DNA from: an uncultured Candidatus Saccharibacteria bacterium
GTDB taxonomy: Bacteria; Patescibacteriota; Minisyncoccia; UBA6257; XYB1-36-10
Assembly: GCA_964362215.1 (NCBI GenBank)
Contig: CAYIDJ010000002.1
Coordinates: forward strand, 911 to 64,910
Length of the DNA stretch: 64,000 nt
Direction of reading: 5' to 3'
How positions within the stretch are numbered: the first letter of the stretch is position 1; every line of letters starts with the position of its first letter. Both the position numbers and the translations under genes were made by a program. The notes beneath the pieces were generated by a model. It did not search any database and was not told the DNA's origin. It was given only the letters and a program-made list of their open reading frames with translations. This document shows, one piece after another, positions 2,132 through 63,258 of the stretch.

Positions 2132-3808
2132 ATGATTAATAAGTTTGTAGGTTTGTTAGTGGTCGGTTTGGTTATTACCAGCTTGTTTTCGGGTGCGCCG
2201 GTGGTCGTGGCGGCAAGCGTAACTCCAGCAAACGGCGGGCAGAATCTGCCAACTGGGTCGGGATTTGTGAATTTAACTAATGTGTTTATCAGTGAGGTAG
2301 TGGGAGGGGAGATAAGCGTGGGAACGCACATAATTAACCTTCCGGCCGGATGGGAATTTGATACCAGCGGCACGGTTGAGATTGTCACTACAAGTTCGCT
2401 TATGGTGATTTCTCCTACTTCACTTAATCCGGGAGCGAGTTCTTTTTCGTTTCAGATACAGTCGCCGTCAGTGCCGGCTTCTGATTTAGCGATTAAATCA
2501 ATGCGGGTGCGGCCGACGGGAACGGCGGGTGGCAATATCACTCACAGCGGCGCGGCGATTACCGGAATTGTAAATGGCGCGACGAGTTTGGGAGCGTTGT
2601 CAGTGGCGGGTGGTGGCGGAGGCGGTTCATCTTCCGTGGGGCCGCTTTTGGCGGCTGGTGGCGGGGGAGCGGGAGCGCCGATTGTTCCGCCCAGTGGTAT
2701 TTCCGTTCGTATTAACAACGGAGCGGAGACGACTAACAGCCGAACGGTAACGCTTTATATCGTAGCCACTTATGCCGGTGATATGATAATCGCTAACGAC
2801 GAGCCGATTTTTGAAAATTCCGTGCTGGAGTCGTTCGCGGAGCGTAAGACGTGGACATTGTCGGCGGGGGCGGGCGAGAAGCGAGTGCACATAAAGTTCC
2901 GCAGTCCGACCGGCGTTTATTCGGAAGCGGTTTCCGATTCTATCCGGTATGAGCCGGCCGCGGTGGCAGCGCCGATGCCGGAACCGGGTTCGCCCGACGT
3001 CAATATTGATGGAACGATTGATATTGGGGACGCGGCGACGGTTATCACCGGCTGGAACAATGCGGGAGCGACTGACATCAACCGTGATGGAGTTACGGAC
3101 ATAAAAGATTTCAACGCGGTGATGGCGGGGTGGGATGGGGCGGTTCCTTCCACTCGCAGCGGCGCGGCGGACACGATTTTCAGATTGTCTCCGATTATTA
3201 CCGAGGCACGCACTGGCGGGCAGGTGGCGGTGACAATTGAAGTTCTGCCGGGTTCAAACCCAATTTATACTACCCGTTTAGTGCTTAACTATTCGGCGAA
3301 TATGCTGGAGGTGGCACAAGTGAGTTATGAAAACGGATGGATGCCTTTATCTATCGGAATTAACGCGTCGGACGCGGCCGGCACATTGGTGCGGACGGCT
3401 GGGTTCCCTCGCGGATTGGATTCAAACCGGAATTTTATGAGAGTGGTGTTTAATGCCAAGCGGCCGGGGACGGCAACGGTGTCCGTTAACAGCGGCTCGG
3501 TGGCAATGGATGGACGCGGCTTAAATGAGTTTGGCGGCGGATTGGCGCAGACGGCGATAACGATTACCGGTACGCCAGTGGCGGCCGCGACGATAGTGAC
3601 GCCGGCGGCGAGAGTAACTTCGGTAGCGCCGACGGCGGGAACTGAAGCAGAAGCGCCGGTAACAGAGACAACGGAACAGCCGGTACAGCCGTTAGGAGCT
3701 TTGGTGGTGGATTTGTTTAGCAATTTGTCACCGGCGGCGTACGCGGCGGCGATAGCGATTTTGGCGGCGGCCGGATATGGGGCCAGACGGTGGTTTATGC
3801 CGTTCTAA
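2132..3808 (+). CDS. Cell-surface protein with dockerin-like repeats and a cohesin-like domain, C-terminal membrane anchor
   Basis: 558-aa ORF with N-terminal hydrophobic segment. 'DVNIDGTIDIGD...TDINRDGVTDIKDF' is a paired dockerin/EF-hand-like DxNxDGxxD repeat. 'IFRLSPIITEARTGGQVAVTIEVLPG...LVLNYSANMLEV' is cohesin-like. C-terminal 'AAYAAAIAILAAAGYGARRW' is a TM segment. Confidence 0.7.
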   Translation: MINKFVGLLVVGLVITSLFSGAPVVVAASVTPANGGQNLPTGSGFVNLTNVFISEVVGGEISVGTHIINLPAGWEFDTSGTVEIVTTSSLMVISPTSLNPGASSFSFQIQSPSVPASDLAIKSMRVRPTGTAGGNITHSGAAITGIVNGATSLGALSVAGGGGGGSSSVGPLLAAGGGGAGAPIVPPSGISVRINNGAETTNSRTVTLYIVATYAGDMIIANDEPIFENSVLESFAERKTWTLSAGAGEKRVHIKFRSPTGVYSEAVSDSIRYEPAAVAAPMPEPGSPDVNIDGTIDIGDAATVITGWNNAGATDINRDGVTDIKDFNAVMAGWDGAVPSTRSGAADTIFRLSPIITEARTGGQVAVTIEVLPGSNPIYTTRLVLNYSANMLEVAQVSYENGWMPLSIGINASDAAGTLVRTAGFPRGLDSNRNFMRVVFNAKRPGTATVSVNSGSVAMDGRGLNEFGGGLAQTAITITGTPVAAATIVTPAARVTSVAPTAGTEAEAPVTETTEQPVQPLGALVVDLFSNLSPAAYAAAIAILAAAGYGARRWFMPF

Positions 3809-4562: not shown

Positions 4563-5426
4563 ATGAGGAAGATATTTTTTATCGCAGTGATGGTGGTGGC
4601 GGTGGGGGGAGTTTGGTGGTGGGGACAACAAAACGGTATTTCCTGGCGAGAACTGCCGGCAGAGTTTATGGCGCTGGTTGAGGATTCTTTTAAGCGGGAA
4701 GTGGAGTGGAAGACGACGACGATAGGAGAGAATCGGAAGTTTACGGCGGATGTGCCGGAGAATTGGGAGGCGACGATTAGCGGGAACGGGCTTACCCTTT
4801 CCAGTCCGGAGTTAGGAGAGACAATAAAGATTGAAACAGCTTCAACAACGGTGACGTTGCCGGTGGAGGAAGTCAGCCGGAGCGAGACGGTTCAGGTTGG
4901 GGGGCAGGAAGCGGTGGTGGTGCGGGGAGAAGGAGAAGAACCGGATACGGCTTATGTGCCTTTGCCGGACGGGACGCAAGTAGTGGTGACGGGCAAGGGG
5001 GAAGTATTTGAAGAAACATATAAGCGGATTGACCCGACACCGAACGAGCCGGACTGGAAACTGTTGGGAGTGGAGGCGCCGGAGACGGAGAGAATCGCGG
5101 CGGTACTGGACGAGTATTTGCCGAAGTTCGCGCCGGAACCGGCGGCGGCCGGAAAAAAATGGCAGAGCGAGGCGGTAGTCAGAATTATCGGACAACCGTT
5201 CGCTTATGTGGGATATGGGGATGGGGAAAGTAAACAGACGCTGATTATTAATTTGATGACGCCAGCAGGAGAGGTACCGGCGACTATCGGCTATTACAAA
5301 ACGGAAATAAAACAACAAGGAGGAAAGTGGGTGGTGATGGGTTCGCCGGACAAGGCAATTGCGATTTTGCCGGAGGCGGCGGCGGGATACGCGAAGGGGA
5401 GTGGCGGCACGTGGGAGAAGAAGTAG
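4563..5426 (+). CDS. Membrane-anchored hypothetical protein
   Basis: ORF 4473-5426. I prefer the internal ATG at 4563 (MRKIFFIAVMVVAVGGVWWW signal anchor) because an extended -10 (TGgTATAAT, 4545-4553) lies 9 nt upstream. Confidence 0.55.
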   Translation: MRKIFFIAVMVVAVGGVWWWGQQNGISWRELPAEFMALVEDSFKREVEWKTTTIGENRKFTADVPENWEATISGNGLTLSSPELGETIKIETASTTVTLPVEEVSRSETVQVGGQEAVVVRGEGEEPDTAYVPLPDGTQVVVTGKGEVFEETYKRIDPTPNEPDWKLLGVEAPETERIAAVLDEYLPKFAPEPAAAGKKWQSEAVVRIIGQPFAYVGYGDGESKQTLIINLMTPAGEVPATIGYYKTEIKQQGGKWVVMGSPDKAIAILPEAAAGYAKGSGGTWEKK

Positions 5427-5431
5427 GTTTT

Positions 5432-5536
5432 AGTAAAAGATAATTGTTTGTGAGACACGTGTATTTTCTGGCTGGAAAATCACTCTGATTCGCACCGCCG
5501 TGCTCCGCGCGGTCTCACAAACAATTATCTTTTACT
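5432..5536. repeat. Long hairpin element, family C copy 1 (25-bp perfect inverted repeat, ~55-nt conserved loop)
   Basis: agtaaaagataattgtttgtgagac (5432-5456) is the exact reverse complement of 5512-5536. The loop ends in ctctgattcgcaccgccgtgctccgcgcg, which is shared with 42694-42748. Confidence 0.85.
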
Positions 5537-5606
5537 GTACACTTGGCTCTGGCGAATGTTTTTGTCGATTGGATTGTGCCGAGGGGAAAGAAATTATATT
5601 TAAGAT

Positions 5607-5656
5607 AGCCTGCCTAAATTTTTACATGAGTAAAAAATTAGGCAGGCTTTAATTTT
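5607..5656 (+). terminator. Terminator-like hairpin of the AGCC(C/T)GCC-AT-rich family
   Basis: agcctgcctaaattttta-catgag-taaaaaattaggcaggct followed by ttaattttt. Confidence 0.6.
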
Positions 5657-16173: not shown

Positions 16174-16368
16174 CCATACTAAAAAAATTTCTGGATGCTG
16201 GTAATGCGGCTCATAATATACTCTCGCTACCGTCCATCTCCCCAGCGAGGAGATGGACTACGCCTCGCCCTCGCTCGTCCCGACTAAAGTCGGGACACCG
16301 TGCCTGCTCGGGCTCGGATGCGCGCTCGAGTATATTATGAGCCGCATAGTGTATATTTTTTAGTGTGG
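16174..16368. repeat. Nested palindromic element, family B copy 1
   Basis: Outer arms atgcggctcataatatactc (16204-16223) and gagtatattatgagccgcat (16328-16347). Inner hairpins are gtccatctcc/ggagatggac and gtcccgac/gtcgggac. Homologous to 63101-63258. Confidence 0.85.
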
Positions 16369-16463: not shown

Positions 16464-16570
16464 ATAGAAGTCGCTAATGGCAATGGGGAGAATAAACCAC
16501 TCTTTTCTTTCCTACTTTAGGGGAGAGGTTGGATAATAAGGTAGTCCCGAATTACTCGGGACTTTTATTA
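16464..16570 (+). repeat. Family-A right-arm fragment + conserved 3-prime module
   Basis: atagaagtcgctaatggcaatggggagaataaa (compare 22764-22795), then gggagaggttggataataaggtagtcccga-attac-tcgggacttttatta. Confidence 0.7.
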
Positions 16571-21259: not shown

Positions 21260-21307
21260 TTATATTTATTTTCCCCATTACCCATAGCTCCGCTATTCGC
21301 TTAACGT

Positions 21308-21339
21308 GAACAAATAGGAATTTGTTTATGTGATATACT
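21308..21339 (+). promoter_or_regulatory. Palindrome GAACAAATAGGAATTTGTTt + extended -10 (TGaTATACT) upstream of eno
   Basis: The 20-bp palindrome (21308-21327) lies 3 nt before TG-a-TATACT (21331-21339). The GTG start at 21347 is only 7 nt downstream of the -10. Confidence 0.5.
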
Positions 21340-22573: not shown

Positions 22574-22590
22574 AAAATATGTTTTGTGAT

Positions 22591-22791
22591 ATTCTCCCCA
22601 TTACCATCGGCTCCGCTATTCGCTTAAAGCGAGTAATATTCACTCCCCTCTAATTTGGCTTATAAAACGGCTGGTTCCCGTTCCTCCCAAGGGGATTTTC
22701 CGACCAGCCGTTTTATAAAAGCCAAATTCTTCGTTGCGTTCATTTATCGCTAATTAAGCTCATAGAAGTCGCCAATGGTAATAGGGAGAAT
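22591..22791. repeat. Nested palindromic element, family A copy 1 (~200 bp)
   Basis: attctccccattaccatcggc (22591-22611) pairs with gccaatggtaatagggagaat (22771-22791). Inner arms ...ggcttataaaacggctggt / accagccgttttataaaagcc also pair. Homologous to 34824-35040. Confidence 0.85.
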
Positions 22792-22810
22792 AATTTACCC
22801 TTTTTATTTG

Positions 22811-22880
22811 GAGAGGGGGTTGGACTTAAGGTAGCCCGCCAAAATTTTTGCTTGCGCAAAAACTTAGGCGGGCTTTTGTT
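22811..22880 (+). terminator. Conserved 3-prime module: GAGAGGGGGTTGGACTTAAGGTAGCCCGCC hairpin + T tract
   Basis: agcccgccaaaatttttg-cttgcg-caaaaacttaggcgggct then tttgtttt. The same module recurs at 8 other sites. Confidence 0.7.
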
Positions 22881-22881
22881 T

Positions 22882-22917
22882 TATCCACTTATAATACATA
22901 TGTATTATAAGTGGATA
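22882..22917. repeat. 36-bp perfect palindrome P1 (TATCCACTTATAATACATATGTATTATAAGTGGATA)
   Basis: It is its own reverse complement. Related copies are at 37772-37807 and 46275-46310, with half copies at 26081-26095 and 42601-42610. Confidence 0.85.
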
Positions 22918-24247: not shown

Positions 24248-24817
24248 TCATTGAGCAGCGGAAATTTCTTCTTTTTCAAGAATCGCTGCTATTTTCTTAA
24301 TACAGGCATAGGCCTTGGGAGAGTGGATGCTGGTAAAGCAAAAGATGTTTTTATATTCTTCCACGGTTGAGGCGAATTCCATGGCCTTCTCCAAGGCCTT
24401 TCTTTCCACCTCGCTGCCGCCTGGAGCTTTCCGGCAGATACCCAGACACTCTTTCACGGTTGAGGCGAATTCCATGGCCTTCTCCAAGGCCTTTTTTTTC
24501 ATCTCGCTGCCGCCTGGAGCTTTCTGGCAGATATCCAGACACTCTTCCACGGTTGAGGCGAATTCCATGGCCTTCTCCAAGGCCTTTTTTTCCACCTCGC
24601 TGCCGCCTGGAGCTTTCCGGCAGATACCCAGACACTCTTCCACGGTTGAGGCGGAGAGAAGTTTCTTCATTATGTCGGTTTCCTCCGGTAATGGCACATC
24701 GAGGGCTGAACAAACTTGGTCTCTTTTGTCTTGACCAAGAATCAGGCACAACCTATCAACTAACACTGAATTGTCCATAACAGAACTCCCTTCACTTTTT
24801 TGGGTTTTAATTAACAC
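24248..24817 (-). CDS. Tandem-repeat protein (31-aa helical repeats ASTVEECLxICxKAPGGSExxKKALEKAMEF)
   Basis: The longest of several open frames over the repeat (189 aa) and the only one with unique N- and C-terminal flanks. It sits between a terminator and a divergent promoter region. Confidence 0.5.
   Translation of the reverse strand: MLIKTQKSEGSSVMDNSVLVDRLCLILGQDKRDQVCSALDVPLPEETDIMKKLLSASTVEECLGICRKAPGGSEVEKKALEKAMEFASTVEECLDICQKAPGGSEMKKKALEKAMEFASTVKECLGICRKAPGGSEVERKALEKAMEFASTVEEYKNIFCFTSIHSPKAYACIKKIAAILEKEEISAAQ
24362..24653. repeat. 93-bp tandem repeat, ~3.1 copies, near-identical
   Basis: cacggttgaggcgaattccatggcc recurs at 24362, 24455, 24548 and 24641, an exact 93-nt (31-codon) period. 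Confidence 0.9.
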
Positions 24818-25955: not shown

Positions 25956-25987
25956 GGCGGGAGGAAAAAATATAAAGTTCAGGCAAT

Positions 25988-26095
25988 ATTCTCCCCATTA
26001 CCACTGGCTCCGCTATTCGCTTAAAGCGGATAATATTCGCTCCAATCCAATTTGGCTTATAAAATGACCGGTTCCCGTTGTTTTATAAGTGGATA
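25988..26095. repeat. Family A left arm only (truncated copy) fused to a half P1 palindrome
   Basis: attctccccattaccactggctccgctattcgcttaaagcgg...ggttcccgtt, then ttttataagtggata. The right arm is missing. Confidence 0.75.
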
Positions 26096-26144
26096 GAGTA
26101 TAAAAAGGTGATGTCAGGGTGATAGTTGTTGTATAATAGCGGGG

Positions 26145-34823: not shown

Positions 34824-35040
34824 TATATTCCCCCACCACCATTCGCTCCGCTACTCGCTCAAAGCGAATAATATTCGCTCCGTTCTAATTTGGCTTATAA
34901 AATGACTGGTTCCCATTCCTCCCTCGATAGAACCTCGGGATTTTCCGACCAGTCATATTTATAGAAGCCAAATTGTTCATTCCGCTCATTTATCGCTTAT
35001 TAAGCTCGTAGAAGTCGCGAATAATGATGGGGAGAATATA
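34824..35040. repeat. Nested palindromic element, family A copy 2
   Basis: tatattcccccaccaccattcgc pairs with gcgaataatgatggggagaatata. Collinear with 22591-22791 throughout. Confidence 0.85.
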
Positions 35041-35055
35041 AACTATTCTTCCTGG

Positions 35056-35125
35056 GGGAGAGGTTGGATGAGAATGTAGCCCGCCAAAATTTTTGCTTAC
35101 GCAAAAACTTAGGCGGGCTTTTGTT
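35056..35125 (+). terminator. Conserved 3-prime module (GGGGAGAGGTTGGATGAGAATGTAGCCCGCC hairpin + T tract)
   Basis: Hairpin agcccgccaaaatttttg-cttacg-caaaaacttaggcgggct (35078-35118), then tttgttt. Confidence 0.7.
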
Positions 35126-35191
35126 TATATGGGAAAATCGGAATTGAAAAAAAACAGCGCCGAGGGTTTGGGTTTTTTTAATGTTAGTTGG

Positions 35192-37768: not shown

Positions 37769-37771
37769 TAT

Positions 37772-37856
37772 TATCCACTTATAAAACATATGTTTTATAA
37801 GTGGATAGGTTGGGTGTGGTTACTATAATTTTTCCACGGTCGTTGGAAAATTATAG
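37772..37856. repeat. Two-hairpin module: P1 palindrome (37772-37807) + H2 hairpin (37823-37856)
   Basis: tatccacttataaaacatatgttttataagtggata, then ctataatttttccacggtcgttggaaaattatag. The same pair is found in reverse order at 46231-46310. Confidence 0.8.
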
Positions 37857-42552: not shown

Positions 42553-42665
42553 AATACCAAGTTAATTTTATATTAAGTGGCGGGGTAGAGCAATGGAGGA
42601 AGTGGATAGGTTGGTTTGTGTATAATTATGAATAACTTGCCAACATACTCTCGCTTAGCGGCAAT

Positions 42666-42776
42666 CAGAAGCCCAGTTTCCTGTTTGTTGGACACGGATA
42701 TTTTTTTGCTAAAAAATTCCTCTGACTCGCACCGCCGTGCTCCGCGCGGTCCAACAAACAGGAAACTGGGCTTCTC
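42666..42776. repeat. Long hairpin element, family C copy 2 (27-bp perfect stem, conserved loop)
   Basis: agaagcccagtttcctgtttgttggac pairs with gtccaacaaacaggaaactgggcttct. The loop 3-prime half ctctgactcgcaccgccgtgctccgcgcg matches the copy at 5484-5511. Confidence 0.85.
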
Positions 42777-42827
42777 TGGCTGATTTATGTGTTTTAAGTG
42801 AGTTGCTCTTAAATTTATCAACCTTAA

Positions 42828-57800: not shown

Positions 57801-58191
57801 CGAGTAAATAAGGAAAGGACAGAAAAGTCATTCTGACGTTACGCCCGAACATTGGAATGACACAAGGAAGTTTGAACTTTGGGGTGGTTTGTGGGAAAAT
57901 AGGCGATAGTAGAGATTTATAAAAGAATAAAGAAAGAGAGGATTTGGCGATGGTAGGTTTAGTTAATCCAGCAGGTCCGCCTGTTTTGGGGGTTTTTAAG
58001 GTGACGTATCCAAATCCAATAAAGGAGATACCGAGCGGGATTAAGCGGTTAGAGGGTCCTTTTGCGCCGGAGAGTTCGCCTTCACAAATTATTATCGCTG
58101 ACACAAGGCAGTTTCGGCGTTGGCCGGTGCTTCATCCGTACAAGGGGCATAATTTAGATGTCCTCGCGTGAAATAAATAAGGATAACGCCG

Positions 58192-58229
58192 CCCGCCTAA
58201 ATTTTTTCCTAAGCAAAAATTTAGGCGGG
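58192..58229 (+). terminator. Terminator-like hairpin of the CCCGCC-AT-rich family
   Basis: cccgcctaaatttttt-cctaag-caaaaatttaggcggg, then tttttgttt. Confidence 0.6.
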
Positions 58230-58351
58230 TTTTTGTTTATTTATGTATTGCCGAATTCAGGCAGTTTTTGTGATAAAATAAATTCCAATGAAAATAATGG
58301 CGAGAATATAAAAACTTTAACTCGGGCGGGGTTTGTATTATTATTTAGTTA

Positions 58352-61300
58352 ATGCCGGAAAGATTTCCCGACCGTCCGGAAAGAAATGAAGAAAACCTAA
58401 AGAAGGCGGGGTTAGAGTTGGAAAAAGAGGAAAAATCAGAAAAAGAGAAGATTTCGGAAGAAGTAATTCCGGAAGAAAAAACGCCCACGGAGATAGAAAA
58501 AGAAGTTATATTAAACAGTTTGAGTTTAGAAACTGAGCTTGAAAAAGACGCGACAAAAGAATTTAAAAAAGAAAGAAATGAAGAGTGGGAAGAGAAAAAG
58601 GATAATCTGACAATAACCGAGCTTAAAGAAACGGTAGAATTTAATGAATCACAAATAAAGAATCTATTGCATTACGGAGATTCTTTCTTTCACTTATCAG
58701 AAGAAGAGGGGGAGAAGATAGAGAAACTAAACATAAACTTGCCGGAAGAGACGGAGGAGGTTTATTTTTCCCTGAATAAAATAAAAGATTTTATGGAGAA
58801 GGCGCAGAATTATCGCCAAAAAGCTTTTAATCTGATCGGAATAACGGAAGAAGCAGAAGGTGTTTACATAAATAAGCAAGCGCAAGAAGGAGGATGGTCC
58901 TCTTTTCAGGAATTAAAAGAAGAGCATGAGCGACTCGAGGAAGAGATGATGAATTTAGACGAGAAACTAACTTATAACAAATCCTTGAAAAAGTTTATTT
59001 TTGATAAAGAATACCGACAAGAGAGGAAACAGGATAAGCAAAAATTTAAGGAAGTAAAAAAAGAGTACGAGCACAATGAAAAACTATTCCATCCATTAAG
59101 CTATTATAATTTTAGTATTAGAGAACAGATAAGAGGATTTAACCAACTTTTGGATATGTATGGACAAAATACTAAATATTTTACTGAAAAAATTGGAGAT
59201 AAATTAAGAGAAAAATTCATTCAGTATATAAAAAATAAACAAAAGGAAATGGCGCCGGCGGATGAGTTTAAAGATTATGATTTAAGTTTATGGGGACAAA
59301 ATTTTTCTAAGGTAAAAAACTGTTTAACAATTGAAAAAAGCTTAAAGGAGGTGATAACCGCGATGGAGGATAGGGAAAAATGGTATGTTTTTGATATTAA
59401 TAAATTAAAAGGAAGTATGGTTAAGAGTTCAATAAGTCAACACATTATTGAATTTTTTAAAGATGTTTCGTTTAATGACTGGGAGAAGTTTTGCGCGGAT
59501 AATGAAAACACCCTGACCGAAGAAATACGAAAGACAGTCAGCGGAGTTATAACGGATAGAATTCTGGAAACCAGAGAAAAATTTGACGATGGCCGTTTGC
59601 AGAGAGAGGCGGATAGCCTTAGTAACAGTTCTTTTGTTTTTGCTGATAAAGAAACAATGCCGATAGCCGTTATTAATTTACTTAATATTAGTGATTATTA
59701 TGATCGGGTTATGGTGGAAAATAGAGCAGCCGCTGTTTTTGAAAAGTTTAAAGAGGAGAATTTTGACGTTCCGGGAATAAAGAAAATTGTAAAAGCAAAG
59801 GAGATGGTTAATTCTGTTGGTGAATTTTTAAGAGGGGAAAGAGAAATGTATACTCGGTATTTATTAGCAGATGGTTTACTGGAGGCCGGTTCTTTTTACT
59901 TAAAATCAAACGATCCACGAATGCAGGTTTTGGGGGCTTTGTCTTTGCGTGAAATAGACAGATATGAAGGTGCCGACTCAAATAGATCCGATGAGGTTTA
60001 TAAAATGTTTAATAATGTTTATAAAGAAAAAAATCTTAATGAACGGGTAATAGGGGCCATTGGAAAAGTAGCCTTAGATGAGGTATGGTACACAAAAAAT
60101 TTTTATGCCAAGCAAATAGCTTTTAATTTAATTAAAGATTATGACCGTTTGTCTAATGTTAACCAGTGGAAAATAAAGGAGGCGGCGCCCAGGATGGTAG
60201 GATTGTTTGTTTCTAAAAATGAAGTTAGTAATATAAACGAAGAAGAAGCGGAAGTTTTAGCTAAAGTTCTTGAAATAGAACCAAAGGACCTTATAAAAAC
60301 AATTAATTTAATTAATTTGGCAATTAATACTCTTAACGTCAACCATGATTACAGCCCGTTAGAATTTAAACTTTATCATCGTTTGGCTAAAATTGAAGAT
60401 GCGGAAGATTTTTTGGTGAAATTAAATAATCTGGGTTGTCATTTTAGAATAGACAGCACGGATAAATTATTGAAAATACACGAAAACAAAGAGGAATTCA
60501 TAAGTAGAGTTAAACAATTAAAAAATTCCCTTAGTGATTCCGCCTCTTTTAATTTCATAGAGAGAGATGAAGATGTTTATAAAATAACCGATAGCAATCT
60601 TTTAGAAATTTTAGGCAGTTTTAAATCAGATAAGGGTTTGCAGAATTTTGTTCTAAACAATCTTGATAAAATCTTGGCTATTACTTCAGAAAGAAGAGAG
60701 AATTACATTAAAATTCTTGATAAAATAGAACATTCTCCCTCGCAAGAAATTCAAAAACTTAAAAACCAGATTCTTTCTGAAATTGTTTCCACTGATAATC
60801 CGGAGATATCTTATGAAAAGATAGAGCAAGTATTTTTAAAGAACAATCTGCCGGCGGTAGGGAAAATTTACCGCATTTTCGAGACGCTTTATCCGGCATA
60901 TAAAATAAAAAGTTTGATAAATTATCAATCCAGTCCGGTTTTACAGAAAGCCGGACCGACCAGACGGCGCCATATTTTTTACCAAGATTTATTAAAAACG
61001 CATATCCGTTCGGCTAACCGTTCACTTAGAGAATACGCGGAAGCTTTTTTAAGCGGCGAGGGAGTATTGGCTAAAGCGGAGCGGGACGGATTTGATAATT
61101 TAGCAGGAGAAGAAAAAGAGCGGTTAAAATATTTCTTCGGACGATTGAATACATTATTTTTAAGTTCTTCGCTGGGAGAAAACATCAAGGCGGTTGAAAG
61201 AGGTTTATCTTTAGAAGACGAATATAAAAGATTAAAGATAAGTTTGGTGGTTAAAGAAGGACAAACCGTTAAGGAGAGGGTGGAAGAAATGTTTTTGCGA

Positions 61301-62863
61301 CCGGCCGGGCTTGATTCCCTGGGAGCTCTGCTCGATGAAATGGCGGAAGCTAAAAGAGAAGCCCACGAACGAAATATGGAATTGGCTAAAAATCTTAAGG
61401 CCGGTGATCTTAATTTATCTCCGGGAGATATACTGAAGGGGGTTAATGAGAAATTTATTAACTTAATTTTACAAAATGGTTCCGTTTCCAAAGAGTTTTT
61501 AGGCGCGGATACGCCGGGTTCGGATAGTACTCCTTTTGACACGGACGTCAGTGTAGTTTTAAAGCAGGACGTGGAAAACGGAAAAAATAACGCCTTTAAA
61601 AATTCAATGGCGGCTTCTTTTGGTAATCTTGTCTTAGCCATACGCGACCGGGGGCAATTCCAAGTTACAAGACGGCATGGCCAAGAACTTGGCCGCCAGC
61701 AAACAGATAACGGTAAAATGGAACTTTTTAGCACTGGCGGGGGAGGACAACATTACGGCGTCCGTACCGGGTTTCCCTCCACGGAGATAGATTTTATTAT
61801 CGCCAGAGATTCTTTTCTTGAAAAAGGTTATGGCTACAACGAGGGGAAGGTGGAAGAATTGTATTATGAAATAGCCCAAAACGGATTTTACATACCGGTA
61901 ACAGATGAGGAAGGAGAAATTGTTTTCACTCCGGAAATGTACAACGAGTACCGAAAAACATTTGACGGTTTGGACCGTTTTGACGGTAATCCATTGGAAA
62001 TTAAAAGATTGTCAACTGGCGATTCTTATTTACAACAGGTTAAAGAAATAACTAAGGAAATGAAAAAAGACAGAAAAGAGGTGGTAAATTTATCCGACGG
62101 GATTATCAAAGAAGTCCGCCGAGCTTTAGGTGTTTTGGGAATAACTTTTAAGGATAAATATGATCCGGGAATATTGGGGGCGGAACTTTTAGATATCGGC
62201 TCTACCGGGCGGGGAACCAATATGCCAGGCGATTATGATTTTGATTTTACTTTAAAATTAGATGATAAGGATTTTGAATCCGCGGAGGTGATAGCTAAAA
62301 ATATAAAATCGGAAATGGAGTTTCAGGAGGATAAATCTCATCCGGAGGCAAGCGGCTATTATCAGTTGCGTTTGATGGGAATTACTAAAATCGGAAAAAT
62401 TAAATTAAAAGAATCACTTGACCTTGATATTGGATTTGTTAAAAAATCGGATTTGGCGGTTTTTGGTTCTCATAATGCCATTGAAGAAAAATTAGAGTGG
62501 ATAAAAGATAACTTGGGAGAAGACGCCTATTGGGAAGTTTTGGGTAATATTGTCTTGGCTAAAAAAATCCTTAAAGAGGGCGGGGCTTATAAAAGGGTAG
62601 AGCAAGGGGGGTTTGGCGGTATCGGGACGGAAAATTGGATATTGGCTAATTCCGGTAATTTGGAAGAAGCGTTTAGAACTTTCCGCGGGGCCGCTTATGA
62701 AAATGGAAAAATTATTTCCTTTGATGAATTTATGAAAAAATATAAAATTTTTAACGCCGGTATGAATATTAAACATCTTTTCCACGATAACTATATTAAA
62801 AATATGACGGAGAGCGGATATGCTGCTTTTGTTAAAACGGCTGATGAGTTTTTATCTAAATAA
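58352..62863 (+). CDS. Giant 1503-aa protein: E/K-rich N-terminus, long helical middle, C-terminal class-I (archaeal CCA/PAP-like) nucleotidyltransferase domain
   Basis: A single uninterrupted ORF that is strongly AT-rich. aa 1283-1298 GSTGRGTNMPGDYDFD fits the Pol-beta motif. 'LDLDIGF' is a candidate third-acid strand. 'KILKEGGAYKRVEQGGFGGIGTENWIL' resembles the GFSGY..ELL neck motif. No signal peptide or TM. Confidence 0.7.
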   Translation: MPERFPDRPERNEENLKKAGLELEKEEKSEKEKISEEVIPEEKTPTEIEKEVILNSLSLETELEKDATKEFKKERNEEWEEKKDNLTITELKETVEFNESQIKNLLHYGDSFFHLSEEEGEKIEKLNINLPEETEEVYFSLNKIKDFMEKAQNYRQKAFNLIGITEEAEGVYINKQAQEGGWSSFQELKEEHERLEEEMMNLDEKLTYNKSLKKFIFDKEYRQERKQDKQKFKEVKKEYEHNEKLFHPLSYYNFSIREQIRGFNQLLDMYGQNTKYFTEKIGDKLREKFIQYIKNKQKEMAPADEFKDYDLSLWGQNFSKVKNCLTIEKSLKEVITAMEDREKWYVFDINKLKGSMVKSSISQHIIEFFKDVSFNDWEKFCADNENTLTEEIRKTVSGVITDRILETREKFDDGRLQREADSLSNSSFVFADKETMPIAVINLLNISDYYDRVMVENRAAAVFEKFKEENFDVPGIKKIVKAKEMVNSVGEFLRGEREMYTRYLLADGLLEAGSFYLKSNDPRMQVLGALSLREIDRYEGADSNRSDEVYKMFNNVYKEKNLNERVIGAIGKVALDEVWYTKNFYAKQIAFNLIKDYDRLSNVNQWKIKEAAPRMVGLFVSKNEVSNINEEEAEVLAKVLEIEPKDLIKTINLINLAINTLNVNHDYSPLEFKLYHRLAKIEDAEDFLVKLNNLGCHFRIDSTDKLLKIHENKEEFISRVKQLKNSLSDSASFNFIERDEDVYKITDSNLLEILGSFKSDKGLQNFVLNNLDKILAITSERRENYIKILDKIEHSPSQEIQKLKNQILSEIVSTDNPEISYEKIEQVFLKNNLPAVGKIYRIFETLYPAYKIKSLINYQSSPVLQKAGPTRRRHIFYQDLLKTHIRSANRSLREYAEAFLSGEGVLAKAERDGFDNLAGEEKERLKYFFGRLNTLFLSSSLGENIKAVERGLSLEDEYKRLKISLVVKEGQTVKERVEEMFLRPAGLDSLGALLDEMAEAKREAHERNMELAKNLKAGDLNLSPGDILKGVNEKFINLILQNGSVSKEFLGADTPGSDSTPFDTDVSVVLKQDVENGKNNAFKNSMAASFGNLVLAIRDRGQFQVTRRHGQELGRQQTDNGKMELFSTGGGGQHYGVRTGFPSTEIDFIIARDSFLEKGYGYNEGKVEELYYEIAQNGFYIPVTDEEGEIVFTPEMYNEYRKTFDGLDRFDGNPLEIKRLSTGDSYLQQVKEITKEMKKDRKEVVNLSDGIIKEVRRALGVLGITFKDKYDPGILGAELLDIGSTGRGTNMPGDYDFDFTLKLDDKDFESAEVIAKNIKSEMEFQEDKSHPEASGYYQLRLMGITKIGKIKLKESLDLDIGFVKKSDLAVFGSHNAIEEKLEWIKDNLGEDAYWEVLGNIVLAKKILKEGGAYKRVEQGGFGGIGTENWILANSGNLEEAFRTFRGAAYENGKIISFDEFMKKYKIFNAGMNIKHLFHDNYIKNMTESGYAAFVKTADEFLSK

Positions 62864-63085: not shown

Positions 63086-63100
63086 GTTAGGAGGATAGAT

Positions 63101-63258
63101 AGCATCTCGTCAACATACTCTCCCTACCGTCCATTCCCCCAGCGAGGGAATGGACTACGCCTCGGTCTCGCTCCCGAGCACTCAAATTAAGAAATACGAG
63201 TGTTCGGACCATGCCCACTCGACCTCGGATGCGCGCTCAAGTATATTGGCGAGATGCT
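63101..63258. repeat. Nested palindromic element, family B copy 2
   Basis: agcatctcgtcaacatactc pairs with aagtatattggcgagatgct. It shares ...atactctccctaccgtccattcccccagcgagggaatggactacgcctcg... and ...ctcggatgcgcgctcaagtatatt with 16174-16368. Confidence 0.85.

Follow-up and report, generated by a model that had tools for sequence, protein, structure and literature searches.

Family A, a dispersed and uniformly oriented palindromic repeat behind genes of a Paceibacterota genome and its relatives

Copies of Family A in the window

A 64-kb stretch of DNA (the window, by which we mean the whole stretch analysed) carries, behind several of its genes, copies of a long imperfect palindrome designated Family A. 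The repeat had been picked out in a sequence-only reading, which likened two full copies and the accompanying fragments to enterobacterial repetitive intergenic consensus (ERIC) sequences and miniature inverted-repeat transposable elements (MITEs). Enolase and neighbouring proteins place the window in the Paceibacterota of the candidate phyla radiation (CPR), with a metagenome-assembled genome of Liptonbacteria as the closest named relative (56% identity), and the same DNA is found in Hainich groundwater assemblies. CPR/Patescibacteria genomes are small and generally regarded as streamlined. The window has 42 large open reading frames (ORFs), 39 of them on the plus strand, which by Pfam are housekeeping genes or unknowns.

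The window was scanned with a profile hidden Markov model (nhmmer) built on the two full copies, A and B, which align collinearly from end to end. Matches were obtained at five loci, all on the plus strand, and a five-copy profile gave the identical match set. Copy A is a full imperfect palindrome of 205 nt (22589..22793, plus strand; E = 2e-72) that lies 15 nt past the enolase stop codon. Copy B, likewise full (34824..35040, plus strand; E = 1e-77), lies 37 nt past the stop codon of a 244-aa gene and is convergent with a minus-strand PMT_2 gene. Copy C (25986..26079, plus strand; E = 1e-26) extends from the left arm to the apical loop, lies 30 nt past the RmuC stop codon and is 93% identical to copy F, a full copy from outside the window. 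By comparison with copies of another palindrome, D11, its 3' end adjoins the right half of a D11 element without any gap, the junction reading ggttcccgtt followed by gttttataagtggata. Because the apical-loop end runs straight into this right half, copy C may be the product of a single deletion from an arrangement like that at site A, with element, tail, terminator and D11 in that order. Copy D is a 47-nt left-end fragment (21267..21313, plus strand; E = 2e-6) between the PPDK stop codon and the enolase promoter region, and its position holds different sequence in the relatives L005 and L006 (L numbers denote loci fetched for comparison). Copy E is a 31-nt right-end fragment (16464..16494, plus strand, with the profile match reaching 16495; E = 2e-4 with the two-copy and 8e-5 with the five-copy profile), whose end has one mismatch to the 19-nt terminal motif. 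A solitary right-terminus relic, gaaaataatggcgagaata (58290..58308, plus strand), is doubtful, as it has three mismatches to the same motif and is missed by both profiles.

The collinearity of the two full copies and three of the partial copies (25986-26079, 21267-21313 and 16464-16495) bear out the sequence-only reading, and its fragment at about 58297-58317 has no profile match. Where that reading counted six or more copies, five are significant, and the "very high load" that it saw holds for one 19-kb stretch only, the other ~56 kb examined being without a copy. Of the genes that it named beside the full copies, the enolase is confirmed by Pfam, and the "ftsQ-like" label finds no support, the 244-aa protein upstream of copy B having no Pfam hit.

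Anatomy and pairing of the unit

Full copies measure 205-218 nt and are bounded by terminal inverted repeats (TIRs) of 22-24 nt, TATTCTCCCC...GGGGAGAATA. The terminal arms are 22 nt long and 91% complementary in copy A, 24 nt long and 88% complementary in copy G, and made up in copy B of 11-16-nt segments that are 81-91% complementary; inside them lie inner arms of 16 nt that are 100% complementary, both pairs of arms being as previously described. The left boundary is sharp at (TA)TATTCTCCCC, and the left flanks are unrelated between copies. On the right, homology passes GGGGAGAATA in all six copies with a right arm (A, B and E, together with the full copies F, G and H from outside the window). 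It continues for ~40-50 nt, a stretch overlooked in the earlier reading, through a CT-rich spacer, which is a pyrimidine tract, and a purine-rich tail with the consensus GGGGAGAGGTTGGATAATAAGGTAG, and it ends at a GTAG that abuts a terminator hairpin. This hairpin and the T run behind it form an intrinsic terminator, whose stem sequence varies from locus to locus. The whole unit therefore comprises ~250 nt, namely a 205-nt palindrome, the spacer and the tail ending in GTAG.

After copy A the spacer and tail, ggagagggggttggacttaagGTAG (22794..22834, plus strand), are homologous to those of all the other right-armed copies, and the terminator hairpin AGCCCGCC...GGCGGGCT with its T run (22833..22883, plus strand), which belongs to the repeat family D2, starts inside the GTAG. 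The alignment of right flanks delimits a spacer, the tail gggggagaggttggatgagaatGTAG and a long terminator hairpin after copy B (35041..35126, plus strand). After copy E there is a spacer, the tail ggggagaggttggataataagGTAG and a short bidirectional terminator hairpin (16495..16569, plus strand) that is listed on both strands. Tail-associated hairpins may indeed act in the reverse direction too, since the T run and the A-rich end of the tail are complementary. In the window there are five occurrences of the motif GTTGGA-N4-9-GTAG, where 0.61 would be expected. Palindromic elements precede four of them, namely copies A, B and E and one copy of a second family, D15, and a similar tail is found behind copies of a third, D19. 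The notion that spacer, tail and terminator are just the resident 3' end of the enolase gene, to which a like tail and hairpin in L005 had pointed, has lost weight: within the window the tail is confined to the neighbourhood of palindromic elements, and it is absent from the empty relA/parB sites described below and from the enolase terminator of L019. A terminator hairpin with a 19-bp stem, AGCCCGCC(A/T)AAATTTTT...GGCGGGCT, followed by a T run, has four copies in the window (5600-5655, 22833-22881, 35078-35126 and 58185-58238) and also occurs in L005, L006 and L015; behind enolase in L005 the same tail and hairpin as at copy A come after a different palindrome.

At all nine loci known to us, within and outside the window, the element lies 8-46 nt past the stop codon of a co-oriented gene, and the same element strand is on the G-rich strand of the genome, the pyrimidine-rich strand being the mRNA-sense strand. 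Four of the loci (B, F, G and H) are at junctions of convergent genes, an arrangement uncommon in this genome, and copies A, C and D are between co-directional genes. With a stop codon invariably before it and a plus-strand intrinsic terminator with a T run after it, the element would be part of the sense transcript, and it is predicted to be co-transcribed as the 3' untranslated region (UTR) of the upstream gene. It is non-coding: the longest ORFs through it have at most 39 aa, and reading frames are broken by indels between copies. A conserved small ORF, or a mini-ORF in the tail (TTG/ATG...TAG), was rejected because neither frame nor length is kept between copies. A promoter inside the element and a minus-strand promoter in the tail were likewise considered and dropped, no conserved -35/-10 being apparent by eye and a sigma-70 scan giving none inside the copies that it covered. 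At the gathering threshold no Rfam 15 family matches Family A, RNase P and two tRNAs being the only passes in the window, and permissive Rfam scans of both full copies gave only sub-threshold hairpin look-alikes.

Both full copies in the window fold as one long hairpin, as the sequence-only reading had it. Copy A reaches -85/-86 kcal/mol on the plus strand (element alone/with flanks) and -99.7 on the minus strand, and copy B -69.6 and -92.6 kcal/mol, respectively. Relative to shuffled sequences the z-scores are -10.4 (plus) and -10.6 (minus) for copy A and -7.5 and -8.8 for copy B, none of 200 shuffles being as stable. Between A and B, seven stem pairs are changed on both sides and seven on one side, and none is broken. 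Across the five full copies 94.9% of 394 cells are paired, two-sided changes occur in 8 pairs against 0-4 in slid controls, and the covariation score is reached by none of 500 shuffles. Such compensatory changes dispose of the possibility, raised with the initial description, that pairing is no better conserved than in shuffled controls.

The two strands are not equivalent in this respect. In all five full copies the minus strand folds better, by 13-26 kcal/mol with RNA parameters and by 3.6-7.3 with DNA parameters, and the same is true of all three D19 copies. One-sided changes in the stem leave G.U-compatible pairs in 20 columns on the minus strand versus 6 on the plus strand. In unpaired columns the plus strand has 19 G versus 83 C, with 30% purines and 7% G; read on the minus strand, these columns comprise 39% A, 31% G, 23% U and 7% C. 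Other intergenic DNA has a skew of +0.25 and 56% purines. At four-fold degenerate sites the GC skew is +0.65 in plus-strand genes and, read on the plus strand, +0.72 for three minus-strand genes, at whose four-fold sites the plus strand is also purine-rich. As the sign on the plus strand is the same for genes of either orientation, the skew is a replication-strand mutational bias and not a coding effect. A mutational origin of the wobble asymmetry was accordingly rejected, for the four-fold sites of both strands' genes push the plus strand towards G and purines, which predicts the opposite. Neutral decay would yield the reverse of the observed pattern, and the sequence should therefore be either young or under selection. 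Two kinds of selection fit, one for pairing of the minus strand, as antisense RNA or single-stranded DNA (ssDNA), and the other for a C-rich, G-poor sense RNA.

Dispersal, gain and turnover

The exact 22-mer GCTCCGCTAYTCGCTYAAAGCG had no match in GTDB species genomes or in the metagenome collection. A looser pattern, TCGCTYAAAGCG-N1-3-TAATATTCRCT, used for the metagenome search, found five metagenome loci, and it had no match in GTDB species genomes or viral contigs. Family A was also without a match in 5,426 complete E. coli genomes and in phages and plasmids (blastn, word size 11 for E. coli). Outside the window there are three further full copies: F, behind a TPR gene on a separate contig of the same Hainich groundwater sample, and G and H, on two contigs of one JGI metagenome, behind a relA/spoT gene (L012) and a PGA_cap gene (L015), respectively. 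A related species, represented by L007/L008, was found through the homologue of the gene upstream of copy B (69% protein identity; synonymous divergence, dS, about 1). Its site orthologous to that of copy B holds a truncated 57-nt left arm of Family A, 37 nt past the stop codon (E = 6e-11). In total, the repeat is seen at nine loci in at least three populations, and its hosts known so far form a small clade of groundwater Paceibacterota. Extension of the window by 10.7 kb of flanking contigs yielded no additional copy.

Comparison with syntenic loci shows that copies are gained and lost. L017 and L019 have the same gene order, enolases 58-59% identical to that of the window and no Family A. 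In L019 the spacer from MacB to MOFRL is 25 nt long against 973 nt in the window, that from enolase to the 2-hydroxyacid dehydrogenase 177 against 547 nt, and that from RmuC to the next gene 38 against 189 nt. In the closer relatives L005 and L006, with enolases 80-82% identical, other palindromes stand behind enolase, of the D19 family in L005 and of the D15 family in L006; both families are also found in the window. At the relA/parB junction, L012 has copy G, L021, from the Hainich population, has 2 nt, and L024 has an 82-nt spacer without element, tail or hairpin. Decayed forms comprise left-only copies, one right-only copy and copies with nested palindromes. Thus, a 42-nt palindrome is nested in the left arm of copy H, and the L007 copy carries this insert as well and is cut off beyond it. 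Through at least three long-palindrome families, Family A, D19 and D15, spacers at core loci have grown 3- to 40-fold compared with those of syntenic relatives, and the occupants of a given site change from one close species to the next.

Several of the accompanying repeats merit description. The small nested palindrome has the core ATATACACGATCGTGTATAT with flanks TGATTA...TAATCA and is present at L015 ~3538-3580, L007 ~4745-4790 and L005 1-25; in two of these three relatives it occupies the same position in the left arm of Family A, and it is absent from the window. D19 elements are nested palindromes of ~145 nt with the termini ATATACTC...GAGTATAT (16205-16347 and 63095-63250 in the window; 1334-1483 in L005); they are C-rich on the plus strand and fold better on the minus strand, each copy having a GTAG-tagged hairpin on the minus strand. 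D15 elements are palindromes with the termini TGTTTGTTGGACACGG...CCAACAAACA, followed by tail and hairpin (5436-5532 and 42655-42790 in the window; the 3' end of L006; L013 ~1590-1700). The D15 copy at 42655 lies between the divergent genes pyrG and pgk, downstream of a promoter-like site, TGTGTATAAT, and could for this reason be an independent transcript. Beside copy G, L012 carries on its minus strand (1544-2013) two small ORFs of 68 and 85 aa in an overlapping operon, with an AT-rich palindromic region upstream. Both are absent from L021 and L024, and the second has a weak HigB/RelE-like hit (E = 0.0016); they probably constitute a toxin-antitoxin cassette.

A perfect inverted repeat, TATCCACTTATAA-N9-TTATAAGTGGATA, is found at 22885-22917, 37771-37807 and 46274-46310, with a half-site at 26085-26096. 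It lies just upstream of plus-strand genes, has TATAAT on both strands and is a candidate for a shared operator or bidirectional promoter. A short hairpin repeat, ACTGGATTCCCGCTTTCGCGGGAATGAC, has four to five copies in one orientation (1894, 1932, 4419, 39887 and, weakly, 48487), one of them inside a 520-aa minus-strand ORF without a Pfam hit. Three tandem 93-nt repeats at 24357-24653, each consisting of GGCCTTCTCCAAGGCC and then a T run, fall inside a 189-aa minus-strand ORF, in place of which syntenic relatives have a gene of 84-90 aa. The bacterial class A RNase P RNA (47568-48063) is 496 nt long against a 367-position model, and hence has ~130 nt of insertions. A 1503-aa ORF (58352-62863) has no Pfam hit. 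Just to the right of the window, a minus-strand block of genes of unknown function (L002 6822-12939), with one Phage_30_3 hit, may be a mobile or phage-derived region.

Origin of the repeat and comparison with known systems

Family A is dispersed, is gained and lost, has sharp boundaries and a fixed orientation, and conserves its pairing. The initial description of a dispersed, intergenic, non-coding palindrome with full and truncated copies is hence upheld. We interpret it as a lineage-restricted, non-autonomous mobile DNA repeat of the kind of MITEs, ERICs or repetitive extragenic palindromes (REPs), a reading to which we assign a probability of about 0.6. Under this interpretation, a unit would be gained in one orientation in the short interval that separates a gene's stop codon from its terminator, either because it enters there or because it is tolerated only there, and would be co-transcribed with the upstream gene. 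Internal deletions and nested insertions of other small palindromes would follow as it decays. Movement would be mediated by an enzyme. Because the orientation is strict and the element adjoins a hairpin, this enzyme may be strand-specific or hairpin-guided, for instance a Y1/HUH-type transposase, rather than one of the classical DDE cut-and-paste type.

A number of observations weigh against mobility of this kind. Neither a transposase nor a Y1/HUH gene, including the PF01797 type, was detected by Pfam among the 42 ORFs of the window, in agreement with the sequence-only reading, or among 10 neighbouring ORFs, nor does either appear in the Pfam annotation precomputed for the remaining fetched loci, the genome being incomplete. 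The only candidate for a target-site duplication is a TA at both ends, which itself extends the palindrome, and the right flank, being homologous between copies, is unreadable as target DNA. The single orientation at all loci and the extension of the unit beyond the right inverted repeat are atypical of MITEs with TIRs. At relA/parB there is no clean empty site for a single element, because the gain in L012 includes the probable toxin-antitoxin pair. The composition and wobble bias, running against the mutational skew, points to selection, and the element may thus be functional and not merely selfish. Finally, the five window copies are confined to 18.6 kb, between 16.4 and 35.0 kb, with none in the other ~56 kb examined. 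This clustering is what immobile copies would show if they had arisen by local segmental duplication or gene conversion in a 19-kb stretch. We nevertheless consider such an origin very improbable, as there are copies behind unrelated genes, on other contigs, in other metagenomes and in other species, the sequences beside them are unrelated, and relatives have empty sites; the repeat is accordingly not confined to the window, an outcome that the initial description had entertained.

Three further explanations concern what the element does or what moves it, and together with local duplication they are not all mutually exclusive. One, which we regard as unlikely though deserving of attention, is that the functional fold is that of the antisense (minus) strand, as a structured antisense RNA or a minus-strand ssDNA hairpin, with mobility being secondary; a candidate role would be that of a barrier or an RNase III target for read-through transcripts from a convergent gene. 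The better folding of the minus strand in all five copies, its excess of G.U-compatible changes and its purine-rich unpaired columns fit this proposal, as purine-rich, C-poor loops resemble those of structured RNAs. Moreover, the bias is opposite to the skew at four-fold sites, and four loci are at convergent junctions. However, selection on the composition of the plus strand could give the same asymmetry, copies A, C and D are between co-directional genes, and on the minus strand the hairpin is not followed by a U tract. On that strand the element is downstream of the terminator hairpin, so that only read-through would transcribe it, and neither inspection of the six aligned right flanks nor the sigma-70 scan inside the copies covered revealed a conserved minus-strand promoter. 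Alternatively, Family A might serve after insertion as a cis-acting 3'-UTR module on the sense mRNA, either protecting or processing 3' ends as REP/ERIC-like elements do, or offering a C-rich, G-poor tract for loading of Rho that is backed by the intrinsic terminator. This too we hold to be improbable, if worth keeping in view. It would account for the constant placement between stop codon and terminator, the orientation relative to transcription fixed at nine of nine loci, the pyrimidine tract of the spacer and a plus strand that is C-rich and G-poor despite strong mutational pressure to G. Selection on that strand for C and against G would, moreover, suffice to yield C.A rather than G.U mismatches. 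Rho, however, binds unstructured RNA, the opposite of a hairpin of -65 to -85 kcal/mol. The compensatory changes indicate that pairing itself is kept, and truncated copies persist without the hairpin.

The last of the three would make Family A a module of a system resembling REPs and bacterial interspersed mosaic elements (BIMEs), moved on ssDNA by a Y1 (HUH) transposase of the RAYT/TIRYT type, RAYTs being REP-associated tyrosine transposases. The hairpins starting at GTAG would represent the REPs, with Family A as a long palindrome that is regularly attached to such hairpins. A GTAG-tagged REP is a stem-loop of 20-40 bp with an unpaired 5' GTAG, of a superfamily thought to be mobilised by RAYTs. 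Such REPs follow ORFs, whether the neighbouring genes are co-directional or convergent, contain G.T pairs and are in some cases embedded in longer palindromes, a placement and an embedding like those seen here, and the TIRs that flank RAYT-type transposase genes share GGGGWSAS (PMC3733652). In our set, GTAG immediately precedes 7 of the 10 tail-associated hairpins, and ATAG, GGTG and GTAA stand before the remaining three. The tails GGGGAGAG of copies B and E fit the shared motif, and the right terminus GGGGAGAA matches it at 7 of 8 positions. Transposition on ssDNA, of the IS200/IS605 kind, is expected to leave all copies in one orientation with respect to the replication strand, as observed for Family A. 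Conversely, no Y1_Tnp gene was found in any sequence examined, copy numbers are small, and the better-folding strand is the minus strand, while the lagging-template strand should be the G-rich plus strand. In most of the hairpins the AG of GTAG is paired with CT, in contrast to the unpaired tags described for REPs; as no RAYT was found either, the resemblance is only a lead, and we think this origin doubtful. Equally speculative is a class of strand-specific CPR elements, comprising Family A and the co-resident D19, whose fold is antisense to the host genes and which would be delivered to the 5' base of GTAG terminator hairpins. It could take the form of an undescribed hairpin-guided insertion of single strands (HUH-type or RNA-templated), or of a domesticated antisense RNA that insulates convergent and read-through transcription where, as in this genome, nearly every gene is on one strand. 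Compatible with such a class are the 20 versus 6 wobble columns, the purine-rich loops of the minus strand, the composition contrary to the extreme mutational skew and the single orientation at nine of nine loci.

Irrespective of how these readings fare, repeats of this type endow housekeeping genes, those of glycolysis among them, with long hairpins in the 3' UTR. They break short-read assemblies and are usable as strain markers. The antisense-biased structure is the feature most worth further study. A composition that is the reverse of a very strong skew (+0.65 to +0.72) offers an unusually clean test of which strand of a bacterial palindromic repeat is selected. A full-text literature search returned no description of MITE-like or intergenic palindromic repeats in CPR/Patescibacteria.

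Among known systems, the likeness to ERIC and MITE elements first proposed holds for dispersal, size and gain and loss; there is no sequence relation to ERIC, and neither a target-site duplication nor a partner transposase was found in the sequences examined. ERIC, also known as the intergenic repeat unit (IRU; ~127 bp), shares with Family A a long, imperfect, single-hairpin palindrome in non-coding, transcribed intergenic DNA by gene ends, the coexistence of complete and partial copies, and orthologous sites that are filled in one related species and empty in another. There is, however, no sequence similarity, the E. coli genomes searched being carriers of ERIC. Family A also differs in its length of ~205 nt, its asymmetric ~40-50-nt tail, its one orientation and its CPR host, and ERIC has no fixed junction with a terminator. 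MITEs with TIRs, such as Correia/NEMIS of Neisseria, RUP and bcr1 of the Bacillus cereus group, are comparable in the 22-24-nt TIRs, a size below 300 nt without an ORF and dispersed, gene-adjacent, co-transcribed copies, and a TA target like that of Correia would fit the terminal TA. Of the features that define MITEs, Family A thus has TIRs, a small non-coding size and dispersed copies with filled and empty orthologous sites; no autonomous insertion sequence (IS) with the same termini was found among the window, neighbouring and fetched-locus ORFs. It departs from them in lacking a demonstrable target-site duplication or a partner IS among the loci searched, in its non-random orientation, antisense-biased pairing and homology past the right repeat into a non-palindromic 3' tail, and in having no internal promoter-like sites.

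GTAG-tagged REPs and BIMEs (Di Nocera et al. 2013, PMC3733652) are similar in having GTAG-preceded hairpins after ORFs and at convergent junctions, covarying stems with wobbles and longer palindromes. Family A is 5-10 times longer than a REP and came without a detected RAYT, and its partner hairpins are few and are canonical terminators with stems of 6-19 bp and a paired AG in the tag. The attC sites of integrons are likewise imperfect palindromes 3' of genes, in constant orientation and with one strand folding better. Unlike them, Family A is longer than known attC sites and flanks core, syntenic genes (enolase, PPDK, RmuC and relA) rather than cassettes. No R'/R'' GTTRRRY core was found in it, and no integron integrase was found by Pfam among the 42 window ORFs. 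Judged from these comparisons, Family A is new by sequence and familiar by kind.

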